NCBI GenBank assembly: GCA_045614325.1 | Contig: JAZLCU010000026.1 | Span: 293 to 64,292, forward strand | Direction: 5' to 3' | DNA from: Faecousia sp. | GTDB taxonomy: Bacteria; Bacillota; Clostridia; Oscillospirales; Oscillospiraceae | DNA length: 64,000 nucleotides | Shown: piece by piece, positions 39,992-61,568 of the stretch | Layout: each line of letters begins with the position of its first letter | Numbering within the stretch: position 1 is the first letter of the stretch | Notes under the pieces: model-generated | What the model saw: only the letters and a program-made list of their open reading frames with translations | Database searches by the model: none | Told to the model about the DNA's origin: nothing | Translations under genes and position numbers: made by a program

Positions 39992-40684
39992 TTAGTCTAA
40001 CCCATAAAAGCCGCGCATTTCATCCAAGCGCTCTTCCTTTATGTTTTCCAGCTCTTCTTCTTTTGGTTTATATATATCTTTCCAGTTGTTTCTTATGCTA
40101 GCGTCTAGCATTTCTTTTTCTACTCTTATATTACCCTTAGAAAGGCGCTTAGCGCGCGCTACAAGGCGTTCTAAGCCCTTTTCGCTTAGTGGTGATTTAA
40201 TACTTTCTCTAATTTGTATATACTCTTTGTACAGCTCTATCAGTTCCAAATCTTTAGTGCTTAATAAATATAGTAATTTATTAAATAAGTTATTTAATGG
40301 ATTAGTATTTAATAGTTGCGTGTTTTCCGCTATGGGTTTTTCCTCATTCGCATTAGCCAATATAGGTTTTTCCGCTATTGGTTTTTCCCGTTGCGGTTGC
40401 TCATAAATATTATAGTTTATTCCGCTAAATTGCCCCTTTTCGTTTACTTCCCTTTCCCTTGTTAAATATCCAAATTTTTCTAACTCTGCTAATGCGCTCA
40501 TTACGCTGTCTTTACCATCTTTGGATAGGGTAACAAGCCCACTAACGCTGTAGTTCCAATCATCGGGCAAGCTTAACATTAACGATAAAAGCCCTTTTGC
40601 TTTAAGGCTCATTTTCTTTTCCCTAAAGTGGTGATTACTCATTACTGTAAAATTCTTGGTTTTATGTACTCTAACAATACCCAT
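39992..40684 (-). CDS. Phage HTH replication-initiator/replisome-organizer-like protein
   Basis: N-terminus RVHKTKNFTVMSN..LKAKGLLS.MLSLPDDW..ELEKFGYL; internal EKPIAE repeats. Confidence 0.72.
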   Translation of the reverse strand: MGIVRVHKTKNFTVMSNHHFREKKMSLKAKGLLSLMLSLPDDWNYSVSGLVTLSKDGKDSVMSALAELEKFGYLTREREVNEKGQFSGINYNIYEQPQREKPIAEKPILANANEEKPIAENTQLLNTNPLNNLFNKLLYLLSTKDLELIELYKEYIQIRESIKSPLSEKGLERLVARAKRLSKGNIRVEKEMLDASIRNNWKDIYKPKEEELENIKEERLDEMRGFYGLD

Positions 40685-40824
40685 TATTTTAACAACTCCC
40701 TTTTATTCAACAATACCACAGCACCGGCGGAAAATCCACTTGCGGTTTAACTGTTATTGGAATTGTAGTTAACTCTAGTAAGCAAAAATAAAAAGGGGTA
40801 GGTGTTACCCTACCCCATAAAAGT

Positions 40825-41016
40825 TTATTCTGTGTTTTGCTCGTTTTTCTTTTGTGCTTGTGTGCCAAAATAGAACGCTATAACTGTAGTAAATACTGCC
40901 ATAAACAGTTCCGGCGCGATTGCACCACTCAGCGCCAATACACAAAATACAATGGTTAGCAATATAGTTACTATTGTTTTTACCTTTAATAGGTTTGCTA
41001 AATTCTTTAGAAACAT
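40825..41016 (-). CDS. Putative holin (2 TM)
   Basis: 63 aa, two hydrophobic helices, VIAFYFGTQ, charged tail; end of late operon. Confidence 0.65.
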   Translation of the reverse strand: MFLKNLANLLKVKTIVTILLTIVFCVLALSGAIAPELFMAVFTTVIAFYFGTQAQKKNEQNTE

Positions 41017-41030
41017 AGTATAACCCCCTA

Positions 41031-41285
41031 TTATTGCTTAATCTGTAAAGTTTCTTTAATATCTTTTACATCGTTTTTAATTTCGCCTAGTGTAATTTCG
41101 TATTGCGCGATAATTCCCGCAAACTTCGTGTTGATTTGGCGATTTTCCTTTATCTCTGCCATTAGCGTTTCTTCTCTGCGTACCGATTGCTTATAGATAA
41201 TCCATATAAAAACACCTAGCGCAATGGCTACCGCGATTGGAAAGCCAACAGTAGTAATAATTTCTACAAATGCTGCAACTTCCAT
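41031..41285 (-). CDS. Holin-like protein (BhlA/UviB-like)
   Basis: N-terminal TM with VGFPIAV followed by coiled coil. Confidence 0.6.
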   Translation of the reverse strand: MEVAAFVEIITTVGFPIAVAIALGVFIWIIYKQSVRREETLMAEIKENRQINTKFAGIIAQYEITLGEIKNDVKDIKETLQIKQ

Positions 41286-41297
41286 TAGTTCGCCCCC

Positions 41298-43028
41298 TTA
41301 CTTCCATCTACCTATAGCGTGTGCGTAAATAGTGCAACTGGCTTGATTTGATATATTTTGGTTACTAGCCACATAGAAATTAAATCTATCCCAATAGTTT
41401 CCTATTTTTCCGCATAAATCAATACCACTACTTACATAGCAAGAATAAGTAACTACTGGGCGTTCTACAAAAGTAAATGGAAAATATAATGTACCATAAC
41501 TAACATAAAACGAGCCTACAAGTCCGCTATAATAAAGTGCGGCGCCAGTATTTACCCAGCATTCTGCAATACCGCTATTCCATTTTCTATAATACCAACC
41601 ACCACTTGTTCCTTGCTCCACTATAAAGTCTGCCATTGGTGTGCCATTAAATGATACCGGCACATTAAAATTAAAGTCAGTATTACTCCAATCAAACACC
41701 GGCACAGCCCTTAGCGTGTTAGATTCGACGCTAAGCGCTATAATACTATCTGCTATATCTACATATACAATATAGGATTTTTTATAATCTACGCTTTCGG
41801 CAAGGTTTATTTCTACCTCATAGGCGCTTAAAGTTATTGCACTATCGGGTACGCTCATTATATCCTGCTCTATTAGGTTTCCGTCCTCGTCTTCCACCCT
41901 ATAGAACAAACTAATAGTATTATTCTTAGCACCAAAAGAGCCTTTATAACAGTAGCCACTTACAGTAAATCCTATATCTGCTTTCGTGCCGTCAGTATCG
42001 TTTAGTTTAATCTTAGCATTTACATTACAAGTAAGCGGTACATAGTGAATAATAGGCACAGTAACATCCTGGGTAACTGTATTGCCTCTATTGTCTGTAG
42101 CGCTAAAAGTAAATACATTACTTGTAGCGTTAGTAAAGTTAACTACTGCACCCGTTTTTGTAACGCCGCCGCAGGTTACGCTTTGGCTAACGATTGTAGC
42201 GCCCTTGCGCCCCTCTGCGCCCCCTTGGCAATCCATACTGTTATAGTACTTAATCATTGTTTTGTCGTTTCCAGTAAGTTTTGTGGCGCTGTTAGATATG
42301 TCTAATACGCTTGGATTTAATACTGGCTCACCGAAAAGAATACTAAAGTTTTTCTTAGTTGTACTATATAAAGTATTGCCGCCAATTACAGTTTTTAGGT
42401 AAAAAGTTACTTCCATACTATTACTACCAACTACAGCAGCGCGCATTTTATTGCGCTCCGCCTCGGTTAGCGGAAATTCATATGTAGCGTTTTTCGTTCT
42501 TGGTACATCTCTATATGCAATATCTGCGCCACCCGTCCAAGAAATACACGCTTGCAAACTTGTTACCGCGCTTTCCGCTGGATTTGTATAAATAATATAT
42601 GGGTTGTCCTCGTCCGTAAAATGCGAGGCGGTTGTAATCTGTGCAGCTCTTGGTATAGCATCAAGCGTAATTGTGCCGCTGCAGCTTGTGCTTGTGACAG
42701 AAGACGGTGGGATAGCACCGGCACAAGAAATAGTAATAGTTTTTGTACCATCTACATTATGATATACCCTTGTGGTAGCAGTTAACGCTACTGTATTCGA
42801 ATTATAAGATACTTCGATGTATTTACTTCCAGTAGAGGTTGTACCATTGATTGTAATACTTCCACTAAAAGTACCGCTAGTAGTATATCCGCTATTGGTG
42901 CGCGAATAAGTTAAAGTTGCTGTTACATCTGAGTAGTTGCCGCTAACCGATTGGGTAGCGCTCCAAGTTATTTTAGGTTGTACTGCGCTATTGCTAGTAG
43001 TACCCGTAAAACTTCCACTTAATGCCAT
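41298..43028 (-). CDS. Tail fiber / receptor-binding minor structural protein (DUF859-like)
   Basis: Ser/Thr-rich beta protein, C-terminal WYYRKWNSG.AECW...AIGRWK domain; last tail gene. Confidence 0.72.
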   Translation of the reverse strand: MALSGSFTGTTSNSAVQPKITWSATQSVSGNYSDVTATLTYSRTNSGYTTSGTFSGSITINGTTSTGSKYIEVSYNSNTVALTATTRVYHNVDGTKTITISCAGAIPPSSVTSTSCSGTITLDAIPRAAQITTASHFTDEDNPYIIYTNPAESAVTSLQACISWTGGADIAYRDVPRTKNATYEFPLTEAERNKMRAAVVGSNSMEVTFYLKTVIGGNTLYSTTKKNFSILFGEPVLNPSVLDISNSATKLTGNDKTMIKYYNSMDCQGGAEGRKGATIVSQSVTCGGVTKTGAVVNFTNATSNVFTFSATDNRGNTVTQDVTVPIIHYVPLTCNVNAKIKLNDTDGTKADIGFTVSGYCYKGSFGAKNNTISLFYRVEDEDGNLIEQDIMSVPDSAITLSAYEVEINLAESVDYKKSYIVYVDIADSIIALSVESNTLRAVPVFDWSNTDFNFNVPVSFNGTPMADFIVEQGTSGGWYYRKWNSGIAECWVNTGAALYYSGLVGSFYVSYGTLYFPFTFVERPVVTYSCYVSSGIDLCGKIGNYWDRFNFYVASNQNISNQASCTIYAHAIGRWK

Positions 43029-43031
43029 TTA

Positions 43032-44588
43032 TTACCCCCCAATCCAAAAGCAAGCAGTTCGCGTTCCGTCCATATCCTCAAATCGGCTATTGTTGCCGAT
43101 AATTAAATAGGTTGTTGCGTGTAAGTCTACCGCCTTTACGCCTTTATTGCTTGCCGTAAGCATTTCTTTATTATCTTTATATACGCTCATACCATCTTCC
43201 GTGATTTGCGTTTTCATTTCGCTGTCACTATTAGTAACTGTTAAGCCGGTATCATCAAAAGTAAATCCCGTGTTAGTTTGTACTTTTGCTACGCCGTTGC
43301 TTATTTCTTTTTGTATTTCTAATGTAACTTGCTCCGTGGTTATTTGTGCTTTTACGCCCTCTGTAAGTGTAGCAAGTTCGCCATTAATGTTTCCTAACGC
43401 CTCTGTAGTAATTTCTTCGATTTTCTGTACAGATGCGTTAATGCTGTTCGTGTTGATTTGTAGCGCCGCAATATCCTTTTTATTAAGTTCGTTTTCGTTA
43501 ACTACAAGCTCAATCTGTTTATTAACCTTATCCACCTTTGCGAAAGTCTGCGTTAGCGCCTCTCCGATTGTAGCAGGGTTAGTGTGCGTTTCGTTACTTT
43601 TGGCAAACTGCCAACTTGATTTCTGCGAATATCCGCCGGTATAAGTAATAGTATCATTTAGCAAGTAAGTTTCTATTGTACTACCATCTTTGGCGGTTAG
43701 TGCTATCTTATCGCCTAATTCTACTAAGTAATTACCGCGCCAGTTGCAGTTATAAGGTGTAATACTTAGCCCACCTACTGCGGCTAGTGCATCTTGCACA
43801 AGTGCGCCCACATCATCGCGCAAAGCCCAAAGTGCGTTATCTCTAATATACTGGGTTTCACCATCGCCGTTTTTAGCCTCTACATTATCACCCAACTCTG
43901 TAGCGCTTACGATTGCTGCAAGCCGCTTTGCGCTTTCGCTAGTAAGGGTAAAGTATTTACTTTTGTCGATTGCGTACGCAGGCGCGCCCGTTGCATCTAG
44001 GCGCTTAAATACAAGTTGGTTATTGTAGTTAATATAGTAAATGGTTTGCGTTACTTCTGCTATATCGTTTAATACTTCTCTAATGGTTTCAGTACCACTA
44101 AAGTTTGCGCGAGCCGCAAAAGATGCGCTCCAATCGTACATATCAGTTAGCAACACTCCAAAAGCGCCAATAGCATCTGCACAAGCCGCCGCCAGTTCTT
44201 CTAGTGTGTATTCTCCTAGCCCCAGTTCCTCATAAGTGTGCGCCGCTGCCTTTTCTATTACATCAAAAGCAGTTATAGTAAGGCTGTTTGTGTTTTCATC
44301 TCTTTTAATATCTGTAACATAAAATACAGGCATAGTAGAGGAATTATTAAAAGCAATACCAAGGGCATCGTTTTGGTTAATATATATGGCGCGCTCTTTG
44401 TCTAGCAGTTTAATAGTTGCCTTTTGGCTAATGCCATAACCGAAAAATTTGTTTTCGCCTACTCTATCAATAAGTATGCTTTGCAGCTTATCGTGCGCCG
44501 TAAAGGCTAAGGTAGAGCCAATTACTTCTACCTTAGCCGTAATAGTTCTTGTAGGGGTGTTAAAAATCTCACTATTTCCATTAATCAT
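43032..44588 (-). CDS. Phage tail/baseplate hub protein
   Basis: Position after distal tail gene; coiled-coil C-terminal half. Confidence 0.62.
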   Translation of the reverse strand: MINGNSEIFNTPTRTITAKVEVIGSTLAFTAHDKLQSILIDRVGENKFFGYGISQKATIKLLDKERAIYINQNDALGIAFNNSSTMPVFYVTDIKRDENTNSLTITAFDVIEKAAAHTYEELGLGEYTLEELAAACADAIGAFGVLLTDMYDWSASFAARANFSGTETIREVLNDIAEVTQTIYYINYNNQLVFKRLDATGAPAYAIDKSKYFTLTSESAKRLAAIVSATELGDNVEAKNGDGETQYIRDNALWALRDDVGALVQDALAAVGGLSITPYNCNWRGNYLVELGDKIALTAKDGSTIETYLLNDTITYTGGYSQKSSWQFAKSNETHTNPATIGEALTQTFAKVDKVNKQIELVVNENELNKKDIAALQINTNSINASVQKIEEITTEALGNINGELATLTEGVKAQITTEQVTLEIQKEISNGVAKVQTNTGFTFDDTGLTVTNSDSEMKTQITEDGMSVYKDNKEMLTASNKGVKAVDLHATTYLIIGNNSRFEDMDGTRTACFWIGG

Positions 44589-44600
44589 TTTTTAGCCCCC

Positions 44601-44957
44601 TTACAGTTCAATAAAATTTAGGCTCATTGGTTTATAAATTGTGCCATTTGGGTTAATGGTGTAGTACTCAGGCTCAGGCGTTCCAGTATAAGCGCTAATG
44701 GTGCTTAGTTCGCCGGTAGTAGGGTTTAGGTATGTAGCGCTTACTACATACCCACTAACCTCATTTAAAATACTTTGCATTTCGTCTGCGGTTGTGTGTC
44801 TAAATGTAATATAAAGTTTTACCTTTTTATTAACTATATCTATAACAGTATCTCCAGCCGCGTTTCTGCCGCTATTATCGCTTACTAAGGTTTCGTAGCC
44901 CACCTTTAAACCACTAACCATTGCGGAAAAGTCCGTGTTGTTAATTTTAAAATACAT
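44601..44957 (-). CDS. Distal tail-like protein
   Basis: Directly after tape measure; SGRNAAG and FIEL end typical of this slot. Confidence 0.6.
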   Translation of the reverse strand: MYFKINNTDFSAMVSGLKVGYETLVSDNSGRNAAGDTVIDIVNKKVKLYITFRHTTADEMQSILNEVSGYVVSATYLNPTTGELSTISAYTGTPEPEYYTINPNGTIYKPMSLNFIEL

Positions 44958-44971
44958 AGGCTATTACCCCC

Positions 44972-47464
44972 TTAAATCAATCTTAATTGTAATTGTCCCG
45001 TTTGCTGTGTTATGCCGTTAATGCTATTAATATTAGCCCAGCCCAGTTCTTTTTCATCTAGCATTAATACAATCTTGCTTGGTGTGTTCATTCGTGCGGC
45101 TAACTTGTCTACAAAGGTATCTATCCATTGGGTATTGTTTTCTAATGGTATAACAGCCTCAGCGCCAGCCTCACCAATGTTAACTAGTGTGCTTTGGGTT
45201 ACAATGCCGCCTTTGGCTAAGCGTGGTATTTGCACCGGCTGACTAGGTAACGAAAAACCCCAATCTTTGCCGAACAAGTCACCAATTGCGCCGGCTACCT
45301 TGCCTACAGTATCTACAATTGCTTTTACAGCCTTGTATACACCGCCTACCAAACTATTAACACCATCGATAATTAAGTTAATAATACCCTTGATAGTTCC
45401 CCAAAGTGCTTGCCACCAACCGCCGGCAATGTCTTTTATACCTTGCCACGCCTTATTCCAATCGCCGGTAAAAACACCCGTAATAAAGGCAACAATACCC
45501 TTAATTATCTTAATAATACCTTGGAATAAGTTAGAAATAGAATTAAGCAAAGTGCGTAAAACTGCCAAAATATTGTCAATTACTTGTTTTACAACTGGGT
45601 AGATTTTCGCTAAAATCCAGTCTACTATAGGCTTTAGTATCTTGTTCCAAAGAATAGTAATATTGTTAGAAATGTCTAATACAGCATCTACCAGGTTATC
45701 CCACAGCGGTTTTAGTGATTCATTCCAAACTTGATTAACCCACTTTAAAAGCGTATCAATTAAAGGCTTTAGGAATTTGTTATAAAAGTTTTCCAGCGTA
45801 TCTCGCATACCTTGGAAAGCAGTACTTAGGTTTTCTTTTAGCTCGCCGCCTGTCTTGTTCCAAGCCTTACTTACGCTCTCTAAACTATCGTTATTAATGG
45901 TTTGGAAAGTATCTAAACTAGGTTTAATTACATTTTCTACAACATCTTTAAAAATGCCGCCTAACCACTCAAAGTCTTTTCCTAGTTCCTCAATACCAAA
46001 AGCGGTAACATCACCTAATATAGGTAATATGTTCTCGCTCCAACTGTTTGTAAAGTTTGGTATAAACTCTTGTCCTAAGTAAGTTAGTATACTTCCAAAG
46101 CCTTGTTTAAAGCCCTCTAAGCCCTCTTGGAAATTAGGCAAGGATTCTTTAACTGCTCCGGCAATCTTTAAGCCAAATTCTTTAAAGCCGTTAATAGTAG
46201 GCGCGAACAAGGTTTTAATACCATTTAATGCGCTCTTTATCTTAGCAATAAATTTATCTATTGATTTACTAGTATTGTCTAAAGCATCTGTAACGCCGCT
46301 AGTATCAATGGCTACACCGCCGCTAGGCAATGCGCCTAAGCTGCTGCCGGTAGCCGCACCACTTGTAGCGCTTTCGCTTTCACTATTGGGATTACTCAAA
46401 ATATTTAATTCATCAAATCCTGCCGTTACTTTTTTAAGTTTCTCTGCTTGCTTGGTTGCATCTGTTAAGCCGCTACCTAATGCACTTGCACCCGTAGCCG
46501 CTTTACCTAATCCAGTAGAAACAGTACCAACGCTAGCCGCTGCATCTGTAATAGCATCTACTTTAGCGCTCTTGCCACCAAGAGCTGCGAAAAATTTACT
46601 TACCCAAGCAAACGCCCTACTAACTGCATTAATTAGCCATTCTAGCGCCTTTGCTACTACTTCTATAGCAGGTGCAAGCGCTGTTAATAGTGTATTAGAA
46701 AGGTTGGCTAGTGCAGTAATTAAAGGCGTTACTGTTTTACCTAATTTCGCTGTGGTAGCATCTAGGCGAGCTTGCGCCTCATTCTGCGCGATAATATCAG
46801 CGTTGTTCTTTTCGTAAAGTAAAGCCGCATCGCTATATAGTCCGTTTAAGGTGTTGCGTATCATTGCTTGCCGTTCGCTTTCGCTATTGGCTGTTGCTAA
46901 TTGTGCATTAAACGCATCTTCACTAACACCTGCCCAGTTAAGTGCATCGGCTAAAGTACCCGTTACAGCGCCCACCTTGGCTGTTTCGTTTGCCGCCTCT
47001 GTTAGTCCCTCTATAGGTAAAGATTCGCCAAAAGTCGCGTATACGCCTTGCAGCGCTGTTGTCCATTCGGCTAGCTCTTTTTCGTTTGTTGTCAGCTTGG
47101 CTAAGTGTGCGCCTGCCTCTGTAGCCTTACCGCTATCACCTAAAAACCTATAAAGATTTTTATAACTTTCTGCGGCTTGTTCGGTACTACTGCCGGCAGA
47201 AAGGAAAGCGGCATTTAAGCGAGCTTGTTCTTCTCTAAATTGTTTAGTGTTGTTGCCTAGTGCTACAAGGGCAGCGCCAACTGCGGCTATCGTGCCTACT
47301 GCAACACCGGCGGCAACTCCAACGGCTTTAAAGGCTTTACCAAGGCTTTTGCCACTTTTGCCGCCCTCTTTGCCTAAGCCGTCTACTTCTTTCTTTACAT
47401 CTTGTATATTCTTTTTAGCGCTGTCTGTAATCGCGCTAATTATAATTTTTAGTTCTTCATTCAT
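44972..47464 (-). CDS. Tail tape measure protein
   Basis: 830 aa, Ala/Gly-rich helical, W/F-spaced repeats, IPRLAKGG..GEAGAEAVIPL. Confidence 0.9.
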   Translation of the reverse strand: MNEELKIIISAITDSAKKNIQDVKKEVDGLGKEGGKSGKSLGKAFKAVGVAAGVAVGTIAAVGAALVALGNNTKQFREEQARLNAAFLSAGSSTEQAAESYKNLYRFLGDSGKATEAGAHLAKLTTNEKELAEWTTALQGVYATFGESLPIEGLTEAANETAKVGAVTGTLADALNWAGVSEDAFNAQLATANSESERQAMIRNTLNGLYSDAALLYEKNNADIIAQNEAQARLDATTAKLGKTVTPLITALANLSNTLLTALAPAIEVVAKALEWLINAVSRAFAWVSKFFAALGGKSAKVDAITDAAASVGTVSTGLGKAATGASALGSGLTDATKQAEKLKKVTAGFDELNILSNPNSESESATSGAATGSSLGALPSGGVAIDTSGVTDALDNTSKSIDKFIAKIKSALNGIKTLFAPTINGFKEFGLKIAGAVKESLPNFQEGLEGFKQGFGSILTYLGQEFIPNFTNSWSENILPILGDVTAFGIEELGKDFEWLGGIFKDVVENVIKPSLDTFQTINNDSLESVSKAWNKTGGELKENLSTAFQGMRDTLENFYNKFLKPLIDTLLKWVNQVWNESLKPLWDNLVDAVLDISNNITILWNKILKPIVDWILAKIYPVVKQVIDNILAVLRTLLNSISNLFQGIIKIIKGIVAFITGVFTGDWNKAWQGIKDIAGGWWQALWGTIKGIINLIIDGVNSLVGGVYKAVKAIVDTVGKVAGAIGDLFGKDWGFSLPSQPVQIPRLAKGGIVTQSTLVNIGEAGAEAVIPLENNTQWIDTFVDKLAARMNTPSKIVLMLDEKELGWANINSINGITQQTGQLQLRLI

Positions 47465-47483
47465 TGTTTAGATTTGCCGCCCC

Positions 47484-47888
47484 CTACCTTTTTAATTTCT
47501 CATTGTGTAAGTTAGCAAACTGTTTAAAACGCGCCACCGCTAATTCTGTGGCTAGTTCTTCTTGTTTTCGTTTATTTTCTTTTGCTTGCTCTTCAAACAA
47601 ACTGCTATAAACTTCTTCTAGTTTTGGCATTTCTACCTCTTGAGAGAATAAACTAGCAATATTTCTACCTATTAGCCCTGCTAGTATGTAGTTATGCGCC
47701 GCTATTTCTTGCGCCCGTTGCTTTTCGCGCCGTTGCCAACTCTTTGTATAGCGGTTTAATTCGGCTATAGTCATTTCCCAAAAGTCAACTTCTCTTATGC
47801 CGCAATCTAAGGCAATATCTAAATAACTATAAAGAAATTCTTCGAAAGTGCGGAAAGGCTCTTGCGCCTCTCCCTCAGTTAGTTTTTT
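47484..47888 (-). CDS. Tail assembly chaperone, -1 frameshift extension (gpGT-like)
   Basis: -1 frame open from the slippery site A AAA AAC (47,888-47,882) into MTIAELNRY. Confidence 0.8.
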   Translation of the reverse strand, partial: KKLTEGEAQEPFRTFEEFLYSYLDIALDCGIREVDFWEMTIAELNRYTKSWQRREKQRAQEIAAHNYILAGLIGRNIASLFSQEVEMPKLEEVYSSLFEEQAKENKRKQEELATELAVARFKQFANLHNEKLKR

Positions 47889-48208
47889 TCGGTGTCAACC
47901 TCTTTAGGGATTAGTCCGCTTTCTTTATAAATATCTAAGATAATATAAATAAACTCGTCTATAGTGTGTCCGTCTTCAATGTAAGCATCGAAAATATCGT
48001 AGGCATCATTTATACTTACGCCGTGGTTATACTGCTGCAATGCTGCGTGTAATACAGTAACCATTGCTGTTACGCTTGGCAGCATTTCCCCTTGTACATC
48101 AAAGATAGATAGGGGATTAGCGCCCAATGCCTTTTCTAGTGCTACTACATTGCGCGTATTCAAACGCAGTTTATATGTAGTGTTGTTTACTTCAAAATTC
48201 ACAAACAT
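47879..48208 (-). CDS. Tail assembly chaperone (gpG-like)
   Basis: Between major tail and tape measure genes; ends EKN-stop on the slippery heptamer. Confidence 0.8.
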   Translation of the reverse strand: MFVNFEVNNTTYKLRLNTRNVVALEKALGANPLSIFDVQGEMLPSVTAMVTVLHAALQQYNHGVSINDAYDIFDAYIEDGHTIDEFIYIILDIYKESGLIPKEVDTEKN

Positions 48209-48290
48209 TTTGTAATACCTCTTTTTCTAAAAATTTGTGGGGTAAAGGGCAAGAGGTTTAACCCTCTACCCCACCCCATATATGGGTTAA

Positions 48291-48674
48291 TTAGGCTTTA
48301 GCGCCCCATACCATTTCGGTATTAGGCTTAATGCCCAAAGTGTAAGTTAAAGCAGCGTTTACGCCAACGCCATCCAGCTTTACAGAACAAGTGCCACCGA
48401 AAGTGCAAGTAACGCCATCCGGCAACTCTACTTTCCATTCGCTCTGCTCACCGGCAGCGCTGTTCAGCTCTTGGAATTGTGCAGCCTCATATAGGAATTT
48501 AAAAGCAAGGCTATCGCCATAGTTTTTAATACCATCTGTGTAGGTGTGCGCTGCATCTGCCAAAGTAGTAATTTCGATAGCCTCAGTATCGCCGCCCAGT
48601 TCGGGAATTTCCATAAGGTTAGTTAATTCTACTTCGCCTTTGTATAATTTAATGTCCTTTGAAATAGTAGCCAT
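48291..48674 (-). CDS. Major tail (tube) protein
   Basis: IPELGG..E.IEITTL.D....Y..GI motif; terminator-like hairpin downstream. Confidence 0.8.
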   Translation of the reverse strand: MATISKDIKLYKGEVELTNLMEIPELGGDTEAIEITTLADAAHTYTDGIKNYGDSLAFKFLYEAAQFQELNSAAGEQSEWKVELPDGVTCTFGGTCSVKLDGVGVNAALTYTLGIKPNTEMVWGAKA

Positions 48675-48688
48675 AATAAGTAGCCCCC

Positions 48689-49734: not shown

Positions 49735-49737
49735 CGC

Positions 49738-50031: not shown

Positions 50032-50080
50032 TGTTTAGCCCCCTATTCTTTAAGGCTAAAGGGGTAGTAGTTACCCCTTA

Positions 50081-50857: not shown

Positions 50858-50874
50858 AATAAATAGCCCCCTTA

Positions 50875-51435: not shown

Positions 51436-51540
51436 TGTTAAAACTCCTTTAAGTTGCGGCATTATGTAAACCGCCCCTTTTAAATAAAATTTAGTTGTTT
51501 CTTTAACGCCTAACCCCTATACAAAAGGCAATATAATTTT

Positions 51541-52317: not shown

Positions 52318-52318
52318 A

Positions 52319-53656: not shown

Positions 53657-53670
53657 CTATTGTAACCCCC

Positions 53671-54894
53671 TTAAAATAAGTTTTTATCTAGGGCTTTTAA
53701 CTTTGTTCCTACGCATTGTAAACTGTAGCGTAAAGCATCTATATAGTGGTTAAAATCGTCTATAGGTTTGTTAATATAAAGCCCCGTGTTTTTGTCTTTT
53801 TGGTAGGTGTAATTTTCAAACTCCGTTATAATTCCAGTACAGTTAGGGTGAATAATAATTTGGTAGTTTTGCAGCTTTTGTATGCCGTGCATTATACTAT
53901 CCGCTCCCTTAGTGCAAGGTTTAATCTTTTGTATGCCCTCTGCCTTAATTTCTGCAATACTCTTAGGTTCTGCACAATCTGCCACTATTACGGATTTACT
54001 AAGCCCCATACTCTTTATAATGTTTGCTAAGTCTTTATTGGTTTTACCAGTAGAGCCGTACTCTTTAAATACATATATGCGCCCTTGCTCTTCACATAGT
54101 AGCGCCGCCGTTATCGCGCTTAAATCGTGGATATAACCGAAATCCAAGCCTACCATTAACTGCCCTTGCTTTTCTTCGTGGTTAAAATCTTCTACTTTCC
54201 AGTTTTGGAATATAAGCCCCTCTGCATCTACACCCCATTCGCCATCGCAGAATACGCGCGCTTTCTGTGGGTTTCTTGTGTATAACTCCTCTAGTTCTGC
54301 TATATATTCAGCATTTAAAAAATGATTGTCCTTATATGTGCTGTGGGTAAATATATAGTTGCTAGGTGGGTTTACCTCGCAAAAATCGTATAGCCAATGG
54401 TTTTTACTAATAGGGTTAAATGCCATTAGTATTTGTTGGTTGGGTGTATCACCGCGCAAACGCAGGTTAAGTTGCTCTACTATTGGCTTGGGTACTTCAA
54501 AAACTTCCTCTATGAATATGCAGCCAATATTATTTAAAGAAAGTAGTTTAGTTTCTTCGTCCAATCCAATAAATATAATTTCACTACCATTTGGAAAGCG
54601 TATATTAAAGTCGGTTTCGCGTATCTTTACGAATTGTGTTAACTGCCATTTGGCTAGTATGTCTTTAAATAGGCTAAAACAAGTGTTTCTAAGCGTTGCG
54701 CCGGTGCGCCTACATACTAGAATCTTAATTTTTTCTCTACAAGCACGAATGATAAGTTTTTGCGTTATAAAATAACTTTTTGCGCTACCTGCGCTACCCA
54801 TATAAATTTCCCATCTGTGGGAATAGTCCAATAGCAAAGGGAAGAATTTAGGCACAAATAAATTTTTGTTTAAATTTAGTTGTATTTGTGCCAT
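53671..54894 (-). CDS. terL: Terminase large subunit (PBSX family)
   Basis: GSAGSAKS Walker A, IFIEE Walker B, FNP, HSTYKDN, GLDFG, NHYIDALRY. Confidence 0.93.
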   Translation of the reverse strand: MAQIQLNLNKNLFVPKFFPLLLDYSHRWEIYMGSAGSAKSYFITQKLIIRACREKIKILVCRRTGATLRNTCFSLFKDILAKWQLTQFVKIRETDFNIRFPNGSEIIFIGLDEETKLLSLNNIGCIFIEEVFEVPKPIVEQLNLRLRGDTPNQQILMAFNPISKNHWLYDFCEVNPPSNYIFTHSTYKDNHFLNAEYIAELEELYTRNPQKARVFCDGEWGVDAEGLIFQNWKVEDFNHEEKQGQLMVGLDFGYIHDLSAITAALLCEEQGRIYVFKEYGSTGKTNKDLANIIKSMGLSKSVIVADCAEPKSIAEIKAEGIQKIKPCTKGADSIMHGIQKLQNYQIIIHPNCTGIITEFENYTYQKDKNTGLYINKPIDDFNHYIDALRYSLQCVGTKLKALDKNLF

Positions 54895-54901
54895 TACTCA
54901 C

Positions 54902-55591
54902 TCACCCCCACTGTTCCGCCATTGCCAGCGCAACACCCTCAAAAGTTTTAGAGCGCTCTTTCTGTCTGGTTTTGCCGCTACCCTCGTTATACCAACGGCT
55001 CATAGTTCTTGTACTGCCGTCTTTAGCGGTATAGCTATATATATCAGGCGCAACAATATTAGTTGGGGTTAAGGGCTGCACACCTTTTAACCATAAGCAA
55101 GTAGCTTTTCTTGCGTTATGCCCATATTCGTATGGTTGGATAATTTGTGTGGGTTTCACCGGCAAGCCATACTCTTTGCATAAGTCCGGAAACCATTTTT
55201 TTATGTAATCCCCACTCATAATGCCTATGGGGTTTTCTATAACTATTTTGTCGCAATCAGCTTTTAAGAATTGAGCAAAAAACCTTACACCCTCTTCTTG
55301 CCGTCCGTCTGCTCTCTTTTTCTCAAAATGTCTTGCTCCACTAACTGCTAAATGGGTACAAGGTGGGAACGCTATAATCATATCCCATTTGCCCTCTTGC
55401 CGGTGGTGTACACCATCGCAAGTAGTAAACTCACAATTACCATTTAATAGCGGTAATACATCTTGTTTAATATGCCACTCAGGATAGCCCCCACTACAAT
55501 CTTCAATATCGCAGCTAAAAGCAATATGCCCCTTATCTCTAAACGCTTTGCACACTCTTTGGCTTTCTTCACAAGCCACTAAAACATACAT
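54902..55591 (-). CDS. Phage DNA cytosine methyltransferase-like protein
   Basis: VLVACEES, SCDI, FPPCT (PC catalytic motif), IENP, K.TCLW. Confidence 0.72.
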   Translation of the reverse strand: MYVLVACEESQRVCKAFRDKGHIAFSCDIEDCSGGYPEWHIKQDVLPLLNGNCEFTTCDGVHHRQEGKWDMIIAFPPCTHLAVSGARHFEKKRADGRQEEGVRFFAQFLKADCDKIVIENPIGIMSGDYIKKWFPDLCKEYGLPVKPTQIIQPYEYGHNARKATCLWLKGVQPLTPTNIVAPDIYSYTAKDGSTRTMSRWYNEGSGKTRQKERSKTFEGVALAMAEQWG

Positions 55592-55601
55592 CTACATTTC
55601 T

Positions 55602-56369
55602 TCACCCCTTTAGTAGCGCGCCCCAAGTCTTAGCGCCTACAATGCCATCTTGTTCTAACCCTCTAGCCTTTTGAAATGCAATAACCGCATTATAGGTTGC
55701 TTGTCCAAAAGAGCCGTCTACGCCATAAGTGCGCCCATTGTTCTGCATCTTATAACCAAGAGCCAATAACAAACGCTGTAGGGTTTCTACCTGCGCGCCC
55801 TTGCTATTCTTTCTAAGTGTATCTAGTTCAATCATTACCTTTTTTACCTCTGCTTTCTGCGGCTGCGGCGTTGCTACTGCGTCAAGTTTAAGCGCGCCAA
55901 AGCCTCTAATATAGCGCCCATTAACCGCGATTGTGCGGCGCGCTACACTCTCTTTTATATTTCCCTCAATAACAGTAATAACGCCGTTTTCTACCTTTTC
56001 TACAATGCCAATATGTTCGGGGCTGCCTAAGTTATCACCCTTGCCGCTGTCTTGCCAATCATAAATAATCAAGTCCGCAGGCTGCGGTATATAGCCATCG
56101 TTCTCTATCCAAGTGCCATTTGCTTTTAGTAACTCAATCATTTTAATGCAGCTACACTCTACTGGCATAATGCCCACAGCACCACAAGCAACGGCAACTG
56201 CGCTTGTAAAGGTAGCGCACCATTCATCTGTATTATATTTAACCTTGTAGCCTCTTGGTAAAGGCTTTAGCGTATTGTAAGTATCAATAATTACTTTATA
56301 ACTTCCGTCTTTTTCGTTGCGCCCTAACCATTGCTGCGCTTGTTTTACAATATCGTTTCTCGTTACCAT
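55602..56369 (-). CDS. Endolysin: CHAP domain plus C-terminal peptidoglycan-binding domain
   Basis: WCATF, HIGIV, IEGN; VDG.FG..T..AV.AFQ..GL..DGIVG.KTW. Confidence 0.88.
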   Translation of the reverse strand: MVTRNDIVKQAQQWLGRNEKDGSYKVIIDTYNTLKPLPRGYKVKYNTDEWCATFTSAVAVACGAVGIMPVECSCIKMIELLKANGTWIENDGYIPQPADLIIYDWQDSGKGDNLGSPEHIGIVEKVENGVITVIEGNIKESVARRTIAVNGRYIRGFGALKLDAVATPQPQKAEVKKVMIELDTLRKNSKGAQVETLQRLLLALGYKMQNNGRTYGVDGSFGQATYNAVIAFQKARGLEQDGIVGAKTWGALLKG

Positions 56370-56372
56370 TAC

Positions 56373-56702
56373 TTATTCTCCAATCTCTATAACAATATCT
56401 GTTCTTAAATCTGCCTCTATCTTTTGCGCCGGTGCATATCCAAGGGAATCAAGTATATATTTATTGGCTTGAAAGCAGCCCTCGTTAGCCAGTTCTATCA
56501 TTTTCTTTTGCGCGAGGCTTTCCGCGTTTTTCCATTGCTCGGCTAATCTTTTCTTTAATTCCTCTTGAAATTCCGGCATCTTACGCCACTTGCCAACAGT
56601 TTTATTATTAAGGTTTAGTAACTCTGCTAGTTTTGTGTCGGGCATCATTGGATTGGCTAGCATTGTTTCTAATAGTTCTATCTGTTTGGGTTTTAAAGCC
56701 AT
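56373..56702 (-). CDS. Putative terminase small subunit (HTH)
   Basis: N-terminal HTH (LAELLNL..TV.KWRK.PEF), A.KYILD..GY; first gene of the late operon. Confidence 0.68.
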   Translation of the reverse strand: MALKPKQIELLETMLANPMMPDTKLAELLNLNNKTVGKWRKMPEFQEELKKRLAEQWKNAESLAQKKMIELANEGCFQANKYILDSLGYAPAQKIEADLRTDIVIEIGE

Positions 56703-56708
56703 TACTAC

Positions 56709-56765
56709 ACCCCCTCACACTTATGTGAATTTTGCCTATATATGATTTGCTTTTTTCGTCCAAAA
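56709..56765 (-). promoter_or_regulatory. Phage bipartite motif copy A (putative late promoter)
   Basis: GGAC-N28-TTCAC..GGGG, same spacing as copies B and C. Confidence 0.55.
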
Positions 56766-56973: not shown

Positions 56974-57450
56974 TTAATAATCCAGTAGCGCAACTAAGCC
57001 GCCAAGCCGTTTAATCTCTTTTAACGGGAATAAGTAAACGCAACTAATATTGTCATTGTGTTTTATCTCTTTATACTAATATTTTTTATAGTGTTCGCGC
57101 ATTACCTTAAAGTCTATAACAACTATCTTGCGCGCTGCCTCACTAACAATACAATAATACTAATAGTTACTATACATATTGCCCTTAGTATAATTGCCTT
57201 TATCAAACCAATAATTTTCTTCTTCGCATAACACATTGCCGGTTTCGTGTATGCGGCTATCGCCTTTTACTTCTAGCATATACTCTGTGCCATCTGCCGC
57301 TATTGCTTTTATATCGCCTTTATGGTAATATTCTTCTTGGTTGCTAACATCGATATAACTATGTTCTGCGTCAAGGTGCTGGAAAACTTCTAGCGCCTTT
57401 TGCTCTATCTTTTTAGCAGCGCTTAAATCATTCCAAAAGTCATAACTCAT
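56974..57450 (-). CDS. PD-(D/E)xK-like nuclease, 158 aa, requires readthrough of 2 TAG
   Basis: GD..LEVK.D..TGN motif; frame continues past TAG 57,162-57,160 and 57,078-57,076 to a TAA abutting the next RBS. Confidence 0.75.
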
Positions 57451-57626
57451 AGTAACCACTCCTGCAGCTCTGCGCCATCCATCATACCGGCTTGTGCCTC
57501 TAACTCCAGTAGCAGTAAATCAGCCTCTAATGCTTTTACTACTTTTTTCTTTGTTTCCAGCGCATCTATATAAATTGTGCCGCGAATAAGTGCCTACTCC
57601 ATAGGTGTATAAATTTCTTTTTCCAT
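57447..57626 (-). CDS. 59-aa hypothetical protein, requires readthrough of 1 TAG
   Basis: AAGGAG RBS; MEKEIYTPME*ALIRG..QEWLL; TGA overlaps the next ATG (ATGA). Confidence 0.72.
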
Positions 57627-57661: not shown

Positions 57662-57716
57662 CCCCTACATCTATAAGTGAAAATTGCGAAAGTACACTTA
57701 ACAAAATTTGTCCCAC
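57662..57716 (-). promoter_or_regulatory. Phage bipartite motif copy B
   Basis: GGAC-N28-TTCAC..GTAGGGG upstream of the 57,626 gene. Confidence 0.55.
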
Positions 57717-57900: not shown

Positions 57901-58095
57901 TTAGCCTCTTTCTTCGTAACTTTCTTGCAGGTATTGCAGCAACGCAGCTCGCTCTGCATCTGTAATTGCTTTTATTTCGTGCGCTAAGTCCATCATACCC
58001 AAGATATAATTATAACTGGCTTGGTTGCGTATCGCCTTAAAAATTGCGGCGGCAGCGTCCATTGTGCGCCGGCGCTTGGGAAAAAGTATTAGCAT
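57901..58095 (-). CDS. Hypothetical protein (TAG-free)
   Basis: GAGGGGG RBS, overlaps upstream stop; followed by gaggc-taact-gcctc-T6 terminator. Confidence 0.6.
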   Translation of the reverse strand: MLILFPKRRRTMDAAAAIFKAIRNQASYNYILGMMDLAHEIKAITDAERAALLQYLQESYEERG

Positions 58096-58358
58096 TTACG
58101 CCCCCTCTTTCTTTTGCGCTCCGGCTCTGCCTTATCCCAGGTTGCCATCTGTTCAAACGCTCCAATAGCGTAATTGGTTTGCTCAACTATTAAAGCGCTA
58201 TCGCAGTTAATAATTACGCGCCCAGTAAATCCGTCTTTTGTAAGTAGAAAAGTAACATTGTAACCGTCTATGCTTTCTTCTTCATACGAAATTCCGCGCG
58301 CCTCAAACATTTTGCAAGCTGTTTCGTATGCTGCCATTTGGCTTGTGTATTCTACCAT
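58089..58358 (-). CDS. Hypothetical protein (TAG-free)
   Basis: AAGGGGG RBS before MVEYTS; own sigmaA-like promoter. Confidence 0.62.
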   Translation of the reverse strand: MVEYTSQMAAYETACKMFEARGISYEEESIDGYNVTFLLTKDGFTGRVIINCDSALIVEQTNYAIGAFEQMATWDKAEPERKRKRGRKC

Positions 58359-58426: not shown

Positions 58427-59128
58427 TTATACTAGTCTTACTAATTCGCCGCTAATCCAAAAGCAATTAGGCTTTCCTGTAGCCACTCTATTGGCGCAAG
58501 CGGTTAGCCCATACTTTTTAATCGCCTCTTTAGCGGTTAGTATTTGCGCGCTTTCCCCCTCTATCTCTATTTGCTCTAAGATTGCAACTGCGCCGCGCGC
58601 TGTTGCGGAATTACTGCCGCAAGGCAGTAATTCCAAATCTGTATTATCTATTGTATTATCTAATGTAGTATTTGTATTATTTCTTATTTCTTTTGGTAAT
58701 AACGCGTTATTACTTTTGGGCATAACGGCGTTATTACTTTTTGGTATAACCGCGTTATTACTTTTGGGCATAACGCTATCTTTTTCGTCATTACCTTTTG
58801 GTATAACGGCGCTTTCCATAAATAAATAACTATTGCTTTCGCCTTGTTGCACCAAGTAGCCCTTTTCTATTAGTTCTTCTATAGCGTTGTTATACTGCTT
58901 AATCTTAATACCAAAGTTAGCCTCTATTTCTTTACTGCTTAGCGCAAATTCATATCCGTGTTGGTTTTTCGCAAAGTATACCCAAAGTTTAAAAGCGCCA
59001 GCCGCCAGTTCCTAAGCGGCTTTTTCCATTGCTGTTATATTGATTGTTGCGTAAATGTTTTGCTTGTTGCAAACTTCCTTGTTTACCTTTACTACCTTTT
59101 GGTTAGGTACTGTTTTATAATTTGCCAT
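58427..59128 (-). CDS. Replication initiator-like protein, 233 aa, requires readthrough of 1 TAG
   Basis: AGGGGG RBS; MANYKT..AMEKAA*ELAAGAFKLWVYF..AIEELIEKGYL winged-HTH-like; TAG at codon 39; internal 24-bp repeats. Confidence 0.75.
58691..58812. repeat. 24-bp tandem repeats (putative origin iterons) inside the rep-like gene
   Basis: Repeated ttgg(g/t)(c)ataacNgcgttattact units encoding (V/L)(I/M/L)PKSNNA. Confidence 0.7.
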
Positions 59129-59144: not shown

Positions 59145-59333
59145 TTATTGGTGTTTTCTTCTTTGGGTTAGTTGTCTAACCGCTATATGCAAGTCCAAGT
59201 TATCTTCAAATACATATGTTATAAACTATGGGAAATTCGGGTTAATGCCGGTGCGAATCAATCTAAAGCCCTATTCCCTCAGCTTTAGCGCTAACCACTT
59301 AGTATAAATTGTGTACTCTTTTTCGTTTGCCAT
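59145..59333 (-). CDS. DUF5659-like small protein, 62 aa, requires readthrough of 2 TAG
   Basis: GAGGT RBS; IYTKWLALKLRE*GFRLIRTGINPNFP*FITYVFED; TAG at codons 21 and 36; ends TAA. Confidence 0.72.
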
Positions 59334-59343
59334 TTTAGTTACC

Positions 59344-59484
59344 TCACTTTTTAAAGTATTCTTTTAGTGCTTGGCGCATAAGCTCACTAACTGTAATACC
59401 CTACGCCGCGCAATATTCTTTTACTTGCTGCTCTTGGCTTGCAGTAAGTCTAAATTTAATTTGCTTTTCTTTGCTTTCTTGCAT
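59344..59484 (-). CDS. Ribbon-helix-helix (CopG/Arc-like) DNA-binding protein, 46 aa, requires readthrough of 1 TAG
   Basis: QIKFRLT strand, helix, AA*GITVSELMRQALKEY second helix; TAG at codon 28. Confidence 0.75.
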
Positions 59485-59634
59485 CTTAATCCCTCGTTTT
59501 CTTGTCCCCCAAATTTTCTTATAAATATTGTGGGGGCTAGTGTTTGCTAACCCCCTATAAGAAAAAAGGAGAAAATATAATGTTCAATGGCTATGCTCTG
59601 TTCACCACTATTTATAAGTAGGAATACTGCCCTA

Positions 59635-59688
59635 CCCCTACAATAAATTAGAAAATTCCAGCTTATCAATTTTCCTCTTTTGCCCAAA
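59635..59688 (-). promoter_or_regulatory. Phage bipartite motif copy C
   Basis: GGGC-N28-TTCTA..GTAGGGG upstream of the RHH-DUF5659-rep unit. Confidence 0.5.
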
Positions 59689-59747
59689 GTTCGGTGCAGC
59701 CTAACCATTTTTATCTAAGTTTTTTTCACTCTAGCGCGCTCCAACCC

Positions 59748-59775
59748 TTGACAACTCCCAATTACTGCATATAAT
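59748..59775 (+). promoter_or_regulatory. sigmaA promoter for two plus-strand phage genes
   Basis: TTGACA-N16-TATAAT. Confidence 0.72.
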
Positions 59776-59822: not shown

Positions 59823-60035
59823 ATGGCTAACAAGTATTTCACAGTTAAAACCGATGCCAAGAGCGGCAAGCAGATTGTCACTATTGACGCTAGCGTTATT
59901 CCCACTCAGGCAGAAAAGGATGTAGCACAGATGTATGTTGCTACCGGCGCTACTGTGCGTTTCAAGAGCGAGGCTCGCGCAACTATCGCTAGACAGCGCG
60001 CTAAGAAAAACGGCTTTGGTGCTAAAAAGGGCTAA
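59823..60035 (+). CDS. Small basic hypothetical protein (TAG-free)
   Basis: GAGGA RBS, 70 aa, Lys/Arg-rich C-terminus. Confidence 0.68.
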   Translation: MANKYFTVKTDAKSGKQIVTIDASVIPTQAEKDVAQMYVATGATVRFKSEARATIARQRAKKNGFGAKKG

Positions 60036-60044
60036 TATTAACTT

Positions 60045-60341
60045 ATGGATTTTAAGAATTTACAGTACGAAAAGGTAAAGTTCCCTTTAACCGATAAGGA
60101 ATTAGCCGAATTTTACAAGACATTAAACAAGATTGATTTTGGCTACTTCGAACAGTGCCTAGATGCCTCTTGTATCTATGAAGAGGATTTGGAGAAAATC
60201 GCACTTGTTAAGCGTATGTTGGAGCAGTTTAACGATGTTATCCGCCTCCGCCTTATGTGGCTCGAAGATAGTTGCGATGTTGTTTTGCCTTGTGATGAGG
60301 ATTCTATGGATAAAATCCTAGATAAATATTATAATCTCTAA
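60045..60341 (+). CDS. Small acidic hypothetical protein (TAG-free)
   Basis: 98 aa, follows the 59,823 gene; terminator downstream. Confidence 0.65.
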   Translation: MDFKNLQYEKVKFPLTDKELAEFYKTLNKIDFGYFEQCLDASCIYEEDLEKIALVKRMLEQFNDVIRLRLMWLEDSCDVVLPCDEDSMDKILDKYYNL

Positions 60342-60401
60342 GCCTCTAGCAAGCCCTATAAGCCGTTTTAGGCTTACCGGCTATCCCATTACCCTAAAAA
60401 G

Positions 60402-60451
60402 AATAAAACCCCTCTAGCGTGAAAGAAAAAGCCGCTAGAGGGGGTTTTATT
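60402..60451. terminator. Bidirectional terminator-like hairpin
   Basis: aataaaaccccctctagcg...cgctagagggggttttatt. Confidence 0.75.
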
Positions 60452-60590
60452 TTGCTAATCATAACCTATAAGCATATATAGTGCGGTATACACTCTTTAC
60501 CATTCACTAACTATATTTTACCAAAAATTTTTCGCTTTTTCAAATTTGCGCGCTTTAAACCCCCTGCTATTACTAGCAAGGGGTTTTGTT

Positions 60591-61568
60591 TTAGTAGTCT
60601 GTTCTTTTTACTGTAAGTGTGCGCTTTTGCTTACGCTTGATATTATCGAGGGGGTTAAATCTGTCGAAATCTTCCTTTAAGTCTTCGCTAAACAGTTTTA
60701 TGTATCTACGCGTCATATCAAGGGTAGCGTGTCCCAGTATGCGCTGTAGCCGTGCTATATCGCCGTTGTTTCTAATCCAAGCCTTAGCAAAGTTGTGGCG
60801 CAGTCCGTGTATGTTTGTACGCTCTACTTCGCGTTCCTTGCAGTACTTACTAAAAGATAATCTTAGCGCATTTGTGGTTAACTGCTCTTCGCCTACATTA
60901 CAGAACAGCCAAGCGTCTGCACCTGCGTTTCTGCGCCATACTCTAATATACTCTTTAATAGCGGTTTCTAGGCTACTGGAAAGTGGGATTACTTGTGCTT
61001 TCTTGTTCTTAGTATGTCCCAATACAATTTCCTTATTCTTAAAATCAATGTCACCAAGTTTTACATTGCAAATTGTGCTTGCTCTATTGCCCGTACCAAG
61101 CACCCAGTTTACAATGTAGTATGAGCGCCAAGTAGTAAAACTGTCTTGTTTACGGGGCTTTTCCAAGAGCATTTCTAGCTCCTCATCATCAAACAATTTA
61201 ATTTGCTCTTCTTGCGCCTCTATTTCGTGAATCTTAAACACCGGCATATACTCGCGCAGCTCGTCCATACACCAATAGAAAAAGGCTCTACAATCGCGCA
61301 AGTAGTGATTTATAGAGGTTGCCTTTACGCCGTCCAGTTTTAGTGTGTTCGCCCATTCATAGAACATAGACGGCTCTACCTTATCTATTGTGTCTGTTGG
61401 CTCTAGTTCGTGAAATGCCATAAAGAAAGTGTAGGATTGGTTATAGTTGCGTAGGGTTGCTTGGGATTTGTTGCGTCCCTCTTTCTCTGCCATAAACTCT
61501 TCGAAAGCCTCTCCAATGGTTATTGCATCTGCTTCGGCGCTTCTTTTGATTGTTCTTTTAACTCTCAT
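60591..61568 (-). CDS. int: Tyrosine integrase
   Basis: TGNR, K, HGLRH, LGH, TRRY catalytic residues; adjacent to the att repeat. Confidence 0.93.
   Translation of the reverse strand: MRVKRTIKRSAEADAITIGEAFEEFMAEKEGRNKSQATLRNYNQSYTFFMAFHELEPTDTIDKVEPSMFYEWANTLKLDGVKATSINHYLRDCRAFFYWCMDELREYMPVFKIHEIEAQEEQIKLFDDEELEMLLEKPRKQDSFTTWRSYYIVNWVLGTGNRASTICNVKLGDIDFKNKEIVLGHTKNKKAQVIPLSSSLETAIKEYIRVWRRNAGADAWLFCNVGEEQLTTNALRLSFSKYCKEREVERTNIHGLRHNFAKAWIRNNGDIARLQRILGHATLDMTRRYIKLFSEDLKEDFDRFNPLDNIKRKQKRTLTVKRTDY

Follow-up and report, generated by a model that had tools for sequence, protein, structure and literature searches.

Amber codons confined to the middle genes of a small Faecousia prophage, a recoding state that recurs among its relatives

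The window examined here, a stretch of 64,000 nucleotides from Faecousia sp. (GenBank assembly GCA_045614325.1, contig JAZLCU010000026.1, positions 293 to 64,292 of the forward strand), contains a small prophage in which in-frame TAG (amber) codons occur only in the middle genes. The prophage is bordered by a 43-nt direct repeat, 100% identical at 61760-61802 and 39786-39828, which represents the 5' part of tRNA-Thr(TGT) and marks the attachment (att) sites at a spacing of 21,974 bp. The GC content is about 40% inside the block and 50-57% in the flank. Along the minus strand, the layout begins with the integrase and a divergent two-gene unit, followed by the genes of a ribbon-helix-helix (RHH) regulator, a DUF5659-like protein and the initiator-like Rep1, and by a cassette of two genes that has a promoter and a terminator of its own. 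It continues with a 59-aa open reading frame (ORF), a nuclease gene and a 28-aa membrane ORF, then a 16-kb late operon running from terS to holin-like genes, and finally rep2.

Five middle genes, all on the minus strand, carry seven TAG codons in frame. The Arc/CopG-like RHH gene (59344-59484, 46 aa, phrog_876) has one at codon 28, and its PF01402 match is above the cut-off across the TAG. The DUF5659-like gene (59145-59333, 62 aa) has two at codons 21 and 36, both covered by a PF18903 match that is below the cut-off (E 4.5e-4). Codon 39 is TAG in rep1 (58427-59128, 233 aa), which encodes an HTH_36 replication-initiator-like protein (phrog_270, E 6e-7) and contains internal 24-bp iteron-like repeats at 58705-58811; codon 11 is TAG in the 59-aa ORF (57447-57626). 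The last gene (56974-57450, 158 aa), in which codons 97 and 125 are TAG, encodes a predicted nuclease of the PD-(D/E)xK superfamily, as suggested by the conserved D46/E60/K62 motif and by weak fold matches of its structural model (pLDDT 92.8), the top folds being D212, I-Ssp6803I and Hjc with probabilities of 0.8-0.99 and E values all above 0.01.

In the whole prophage, TAG fills 7 of the 29 glutamine (Gln) slots of six middle genes, whereas the remaining 27 curated genes have 224 slots and no TAG (Fisher p 1.3e-7, for groups that were defined post hoc, after the data had been seen). The first-pass annotation of this DNA had stated that the packaging, structural and lysis genes, the integrase and both small gene pairs lack internal TAG, and this is borne out by the count. 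The integrase contributes 0/9 slots, and the two small gene pairs 0/13 combined, which is weak alone. The genes that lack TAG in frame contain many such triplets out of frame, 243 in frame 2 and 147 in frame 3, which makes the absence frame-specific. The lone late TAG (47486-47484, minus strand) is the stop of the tail-chaperone frameshift ORF; readthrough would extend it by only 9 codons, to a TGA in the ATGA at which it overlaps the tape measure gene, and the codon is therefore harmless under either code. The earlier claim that the late genes can be translated under both codes also stands.

Comparison with homologues was used to determine the residue for which TAG stands. At rep1 codon 39, 75 of 120 homologues have Gln, and Gln is the commonest homologue residue at nuclease codon 97. 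The equivalent of codon 11 of the 59-aa ORF is Gln in L053, a related locus whose copy has three other TAGs. Homologues are variable and rarely have Gln at RHH 28, DUF5659 21 and nuclease 125, and the assignment at these three sites rests on the family-wide signal, in which 44.5% of the residues aligned to TAG are Gln vs 51.4% for genuine Gln codons. Database homologues may have been translated under either code, and Gln at TAG sites shows the residue rather than the codon. On these alignments, TAG likely stands for Gln in a host that uses the standard code. The same data bear on decay or artefact, in which a dying prophage would have gained the TAGs as nonsense mutations, or the assembly would show them in error. 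The rarity of Gln at the three variable sites is what such decay would predict, but the prophage genes are interrupted by TAG only, never by TAA, TGA or frameshift, and 82 middle-gene alignments across relatives contain 91 TAG, 2 TAA and 0 TGA. The family-wide Gln signal, the perfect att repeats, the full gene set and a near-identical full-length rep1 sibling (P0055), which is conserved beyond the codon 39 site, also stand against it. Assembly error is not the source: a contig from run X2 (93% identical) spans 57046-57260 and shows, among the differences listed, none at the TAG at 57160-57162, which is weak alone, and the homologues P0024 and P0032 terminate exactly before this codon. Decay or artefact is therefore already largely refuted, and we consider it extremely improbable.

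Four terL scans gave 140 loci plus the window at at least 41% identity, and 64 were left after coverage filtering and dereplication. They comprise 28 standard-code, 18 fully recoded and 11 middle-only loci (window included), one leaky locus (L169) and six unclear ones. These classes were set from TAG counts; the non-circular results are a gap in the late share and a nesting. The late TAG share is bimodal, being 0 in 11 loci, 0.04 in one and 0.10-0.59 in 18, and all 18 late-recoded loci also carry middle TAGs, with zero loci recoded late without the middle. Two middle-only assignments are doubtful and were dropped from the slot count below, namely, L105, whose TAGs resemble true stops at which readthrough fuses neighbouring genes, and L214, which has only 2/14 TAG. 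Eight clear middle-only relatives (L195, L053, L203, L103, L014, L179, L019 and L001) carry TAG at 56 of 184 middle slots; in these eight and the window together, the late genes have 924 Gln slots and 0 TAGs. A separate nuclease scan added L275, whose layout matches that of the window in every gene and whose integrase, divergent gene, sigmaA-type pair, terS, lysin and terL are free of TAG. Nine other phages thus clearly repeat the pattern. The inversion that the first-pass annotation had described relative to published recoded phages is real and common to relatives; tabulated by module, the middle-only state recurs, but 18 of the 30 recoded loci bear TAG in late genes. The related prophages sit in Oscillospiraceae, Faecousia and Clostridia genomes, and a rep1 scan of viral contigs gave no match.

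Codon counts indicate that the state is maintained. The window has diverged from its neighbours to saturation at synonymous C/T sites (against L195, the first positions of 62 of 150 Leu codons differ), yet late TAG is zero, which argues that the late genes are actively kept TAG-free. With the middle families pooled, the TAG:CAG ratio is 40:13 in middle-only and 81:34 in fully recoded loci, similar to the T:C ratios at two-fold sites (383:167 and 787:328). In 15 of the 18 fully recoded loci, TAG takes up a larger share of the middle than of the late slots (p 0.0016, with kin that are not independent), and their late genes have a TAG:CAG of 234:332; weak selection against TAG persists in these late genes. 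Leaks of TAG into late genes appear first in the lysin and near gene ends, and 9 of 10 terminal TAGs in the late genes of middle-only loci have a back-up stop within 0-14 codons. The integrase has no in-frame TAG (0/138 slots in fully recoded and 0/37 in middle-only loci). The nuclease gene is recoded more consistently than any other in the family, bearing TAG in 26/26 recoded loci that have it, which is not significant because only 0.7 TAG-free genes would be expected.

A passing stage or a mosaic without regulatory meaning, produced by a recoded middle module swapped into a standard phage or by late reversion, is one alternative. On a quickly built terL tree without a shuffled control, the three states are dispersed, with 17 changes over 58 rows, and a standard clade is nested within a fully recoded one. 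Against it, the four nearest neighbours of the window (L195, L053, L203 and L169; 75-84% terL identity) keep its state despite saturated synonymous divergence and share its middle-gene order, and the late genes lack the CAG excess that simple reversion would leave (residual -0.05). Such an origin is in our view very unlikely.

The control elements of the middle region were characterised in turn. A promoter- or operator-like motif, GGRCAA-N25-TTTYATAT..ATG, occurs at 59685, 57713 and 56761 on the minus strand and has zero position weight matrix (PWM) matches in the 39-kb host flank. Its copies lie before the RHH-rep1 unit (59635-59688, PWM score 35.8), before the nuclease unit (57663-57716, score 21.8) and, in a weaker form that follows a terminator-like hairpin (56807-56779), before the late operon (56711-56764, score 15.2). 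The first-pass annotation had placed all TAG-containing genes behind copies of this motif; both TAG-bearing units do have one, but a third lies before the late operon, which is TAG-free, and the motif is thus no predictor of TAG. A leader element (59532-59575, minus strand) consists of a pyrimidine, anti-Shine-Dalgarno-like tract and a GC hairpin with predicted pairing to a downstream purine tract. It is present in 21 loci and was aligned in 18, the fold z for 59480-59690 is -3.2, and the element is likely an attenuator or translational leader. The complete architecture (motif, pyrimidine tract resembling the 16S 3' end, GC hairpin with T run, purine tract) is conserved before the RHH or nuclease gene in the window (59480-59690, minus strand), L195, L053, L103, L179, L222, L226, L065, L001, L061 and others, and matched no Rfam family. 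The opposite strand of the window leader holds a ribosome-binding site-like sequence and a 13-codon ORF ending in TAG (59580). In L001 (7747-7823), L002 and L003, a tRNA-Ile(TAT) lies immediately 5' of the motif, the leader and a TAG-bearing nuclease gene. A second integrative element of the host (G000:C43:13844-21009), with tyrosine-integrase-like, resolvase-like and XRE-like genes identified by eye, has the same motif (score 32, C43:14402) and leader hairpin and zero in-frame TAG.

Two TAG-free gene pairs have sigmaA-type promoters of their own, as the first-pass annotation had claimed. A perfect TTGACA-16-TATAAT site (59748-59775, plus strand, 12/12 consensus) precedes the divergent unit of a 70-aa ORF (59823-60035, plus strand) and a 98-aa ORF (60045-60341, plus strand; no family match above the cut-off). 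The 70-aa ORF occupies the position of the TAG-free divergent genes of relatives; it had no Atlas match and no significant match to the divergent gene of L065. The site before the other pair, TTGACA-17-TATAAG, was read from the sequence and is missing from the list of the promoter scan. It precedes an 89-aa ORF (58089-58358, minus strand), with a TAG-free homologue in L275, and a 64-aa ORF (57901-58095, minus strand), with TAG-free homologues in L195 and L275 and another homologue in L055, which is followed by a terminator-like hairpin (57915-57887). Directly before terS, the window (56869-56779, minus strand) and relatives have a sigmaA-like site followed by a terminator-like hairpin, a pair that could yield a short, constitutively made RNA or act as an insulator of the late operon.

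Another explanation is that efficient readthrough is limited to the middle phase or to mRNAs with motif and leader, whereas late mRNAs are read in the standard code. The operon-level boundary is sharp, at 0/924 late slots with low-copy terL included, and as many as 10 TAGs are tolerated in one middle gene. The motif was found in 23 of 28 fully recoded or middle-only loci vs 8 of 28 standard ones, and in 9/14 vs 6/26 after removal of the 16 training loci. However, the late operon of the window is also led by a motif copy, motif and leader also occur in the standard-code host element and in standard relatives, and the back-up stops behind terminal late TAGs would be expected if late genes do meet readthrough. 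This explanation is in our judgement distinctly unlikely.

The factor responsible for readthrough was sought in several ways. No suppressor tRNA(CUA) was found in the prophage, the host assembly (87% complete) or 29 relatives by ARAGORN at default thresholds, Rfam or an anticodon stem-loop scan. A relaxed 'tRNA-Pyl' match at 60389-60476 was rejected as a terminator hairpin with a pseudogene flag and similar matches in standard relatives, and the tRNA-Ile(TAT) of L001-L003 was excluded as a suppressor by its anticodon. Among upstream proteins, no family was confined to recoded loci; that of the divergent genes occurs in 7 fully recoded, 5 middle-only and also 6 standard loci. The idea of the motif or leader as a readthrough signal was set aside; although they go along with recoding, standard-code elements have them too. 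The missing tRNA matches a published survey, in which only 13% of 285 TAG-recoded genomes show a suppressor tRNA (PMC9610469).

The first-pass annotation had proposed that termination by host release factor 1 (RF1) at the amber codons of rep and its regulators could itself maintain lysogeny. Several facts agree with termination itself: the RF1 gene prfA is intact in the host, TAG is the stop of 81 of 1,097 long host ORFs, and the rep1 TAG is early. The proposal had left unweighed a second HTH_36 initiator-like gene, rep2 (39992-40684, minus strand, 230 aa; PF13730 E 1e-9, phrog_4707 E 3.5e-25), which is TAG-free and holds three internal GGAAAAACC repeats. Rep2 is also TAG-free in 5 of the 6 middle-only loci that have it, the sixth having one TAG at codon 210 of 222. 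In addition, the RHH-DUF5659-rep1 unit of the recoded relative L053 is TAG-free, and its TAGs occur only further on. Seven loci (L053, L179, L278, L231 and L001-L003) have no integrase within the stretch examined, but have rep2 or a RepB-type initiator; it is possible that they are plasmid-state prophages with a TAG-free maintenance initiator.

In its full form, amber termination would be the primary control of lysogeny, and readthrough from outside, through stress that lowers RF1 or a co-infecting phage that bears a suppressor, would induce the prophage; the late genes would be code-neutral because the trigger is short-lived. A source in trans is possible since no tRNA(CUA) was found, a search limited by the incomplete host assembly, and sensing of co-infecting recoded phages has been raised by Borges et al. 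(bioRxiv 10.1101/2021.08.26.457843). The first TAG lies at codons 6-41, before the helix-turn-helix (HTH) domain, in 12/12 TAG-bearing rep1 genes and at several non-homologous sites (threshold-free p 0.014, with genes that are not independent). This bias is missing from 430 control genes, but it may mirror Gln sites that are older and conserved. In RHH, TAG is about as frequent as chance would give (14/22 genes). The fully recoded relatives need sustained readthrough yet have no tRNA, which points to a phage-borne factor.

The missing repressor was a further part of the proposal, and no cI/XRE-S24 repressor was indeed found in Pfam, PHROGs or NCBIfam searches of the prophage proteins. However, the TAG-free relatives L185 and L183 are integrated in host chromosomes, and no cI/XRE family was found, among the matches listed, for 54 relative proteins (54 of 129 shortlisted candidates, from 18 loci, L185 and L182 included). 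Standard-code members are therefore lysogenic without a cI match; the family has a route to lysogeny that is neither cI nor amber, and a missing cI needs no amber gate. The candidates for this control are the TAG-free divergent genes, the motif and the conserved RHH leader. Together with the TAG-free rep2 and the L053 unit, these results leave the amber codons unproven and not needed as a lysogeny switch, and we regard primary amber control as unlikely. Should it nevertheless operate, coding-density screens would have missed a hidden class of temperate phages with amber only on the lytic initiator and nuclease, woken when a factor that blocks RF1, or co-infection by a recoded phage, changes the reading of UAG; the code itself would be the induction signal, and no suppressor tRNA would be carried. 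We put forward this class tentatively, as a doubtful prospect.

The explanation that we favour, with about as much confidence as reserve, is that the TAGs, likely read as Gln in lytic growth and present only in middle genes, serve as a back-up translational lock in dormancy. The choice between lysis and lysogeny would likely be transcriptional, and readthrough would be incomplete with a cost that is borne operon-wide. The distribution of TAG in five middle genes and in none of the late, integrase or sigmaA-type genes is the first element of this explanation, and the homologue-supported reading of TAG as Gln is the second. Under standard RF1 biology, leaky middle transcripts in the lysogen would yield a 38-aa Rep1 stub that ends before the HTH, a 27-aa RHH stub and a nuclease without its last 62 residues. 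Since RF1 would terminate at these codons in the lysogen, the lock would exist whether selected or not, and as a back-up it is likely real. Induction would then bring a factor permitting UAG readthrough that is not a recognisable phage or host tRNA(CUA). Incomplete readthrough would cost product at each TAG, which may be tolerated or useful in low-dose middle genes and purged from the high-output late operon of 16 kb. The fully recoded Topaz-like relatives would represent the high-efficiency end of one readthrough scale and the window prophage the low-efficiency end. Control parts other than amber are present, namely the motif, leader hairpin, RHH gene and TAG-free divergent genes.

Several observations weigh against the back-up lock with incomplete readthrough. 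The low-copy terL has 0/157 TAG slots in middle-only loci, and fully recoded loci carry TAG in capsid (17/93) and tail-tube (10/32) genes; dose alone therefore fails to rank the genes, and an operon-wide cost is required. The nuclease of L103 has 10 TAGs in 158 aa and needs fairly efficient readthrough. The readthrough factor was not found in our searches, and the efficiency of readthrough is thus purely inferred. The N-terminal TAG in 12/12 rep1 genes hints at positive selection beyond tolerance, and the TTG:CTG control of 11:12 in the middle genes of middle-only loci, which is lower than TAG:CAG, hints at enrichment, in small numbers.

The remaining features of the prophage are as follows. 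The TAG-free tyrosine integrase (60591-61568, minus strand, 325 aa) matches PF00589 (E 1e-33). The late operon (40825-56702, minus strand) encodes terS, a CHAP endolysin, a methyltransferase-like protein, terL, portal, head, tail and holin-like proteins. Its methyltransferase-like gene (54902-55591) is missing from the related run X2 strain (joint 54895-55606) and is accessory. In the host assembly, a compact standard-code head-tail-lysis cluster adjoining host genes (G000:C67:36-10196) has tail, receptor-binding and holin homology with the window prophage. At one att junction (61760-61802, minus strand), the first 43 nt of tRNA-Thr(TGT) lie behind the host promoter and give a partial Rfam tRNA match; the other has the intact tRNA-Thr(TGT) (39753-39828, minus strand). 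A perfect sigmaA-type promoter on the phage side (TTGACA-17-TATAAT, 39935-39963, minus strand) feeds the restored tRNA-Thr and a tRNA-Tyr, and in the excised circle it would run across attP into the integrase. The coding strand of 39830-61760 is strongly depleted in the TC dinucleotide (observed/expected 0.35), with zero GATC in 22 kb, and has 76 CTAG vs 7 in 39 kb of host flank, which suggests avoidance of a host restriction/modification site.

These results have implications for the detection and evolution of recoding. Late-biased recoding has been reported by Yutin (PMC7886860), Pfennig (bioRxiv 10.1101/2022.06.29.495998), Lou (bioRxiv 10.1101/2023.08.07.552389) and Ibrahim (bioRxiv 10.64898/2026.08.21.746148), and the rule of standard early genes and recoded late genes is overturned for one widespread small-phage family. 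No published report of middle-only recoding was found in a literature coverage without many subscription papers and the supplements of Borges et al.; the inversion is real, heritable and apparently undescribed within a known recoding phenomenon. The coding density of the prophage is 90.1% with TAG read through vs 85.8%, a gain of 4.3 points that is below the 10% required in the screen of Borges et al., so such genomes would be scored as standard code. Since middle-only genomes pass as standard, annotation leaves their rep and nuclease genes in fragments, and counts of recoding come out too low. The nesting of late within middle recoding suggests the replication and nuclease operon as the place where recoding begins or persists. 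In this family, three code states are found a short distance apart, in genomes of 22 kb that have few TAG-free early genes and no suppressor tRNA, which makes code switching in small phages directly testable.

Several known systems resemble this one in part. In copG-repB plasmids and in P4-type RNA-controlled replication operons, a small RHH gene lies before the replication initiator and behind a leader hairpin; to our knowledge, these operons have no recoded codons. In the window, RHH likewise precedes rep1 behind a predicted leader hairpin. The nearest GenBank phage terL is only 42% identical to that of the window. The prophage carries no detected tRNA with a CUA anticodon, the mark of suppressor-tRNA-driven code 15 phages (crAss-like, Lak). 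Like the dual-coded crAss-like phages (PMC7886860; bioRxiv 10.1101/2022.06.29.495998), it has one block readable either way and another that needs code 15. In those phages, however, dual coding belongs to the early and replication block and recoding to the late one, in most cases with a Sup-CTA tRNA (225/303), whereas here the late genes are dual-coded and no suppressor tRNA was detected. A further likeness is to the Topaz prophages of Oscillospiraceae (bioRxiv 10.1101/2021.08.26.457843), which are about 22 kb (22 +/- 3 kb, a range that includes the att-to-att spacing found here) and temperate, with a TAG-free integrase and TAG as Gln in a standard-code host, the latter assigned here by homology. 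Fully recoded relatives with the Topaz layout belong to the terL family of the window. Borges et al. described Topaz with recoded structural and lysis genes, TAG-free integrases and variably recoded replication genes, and already proposed a lysis-lysogeny code switch together with the sensing of co-infecting recoded phages. The genes for structure and lysis form one recoded unit in Topaz, whereas in the window 56702-40825 has no internal TAG and only the middle genes are recoded.

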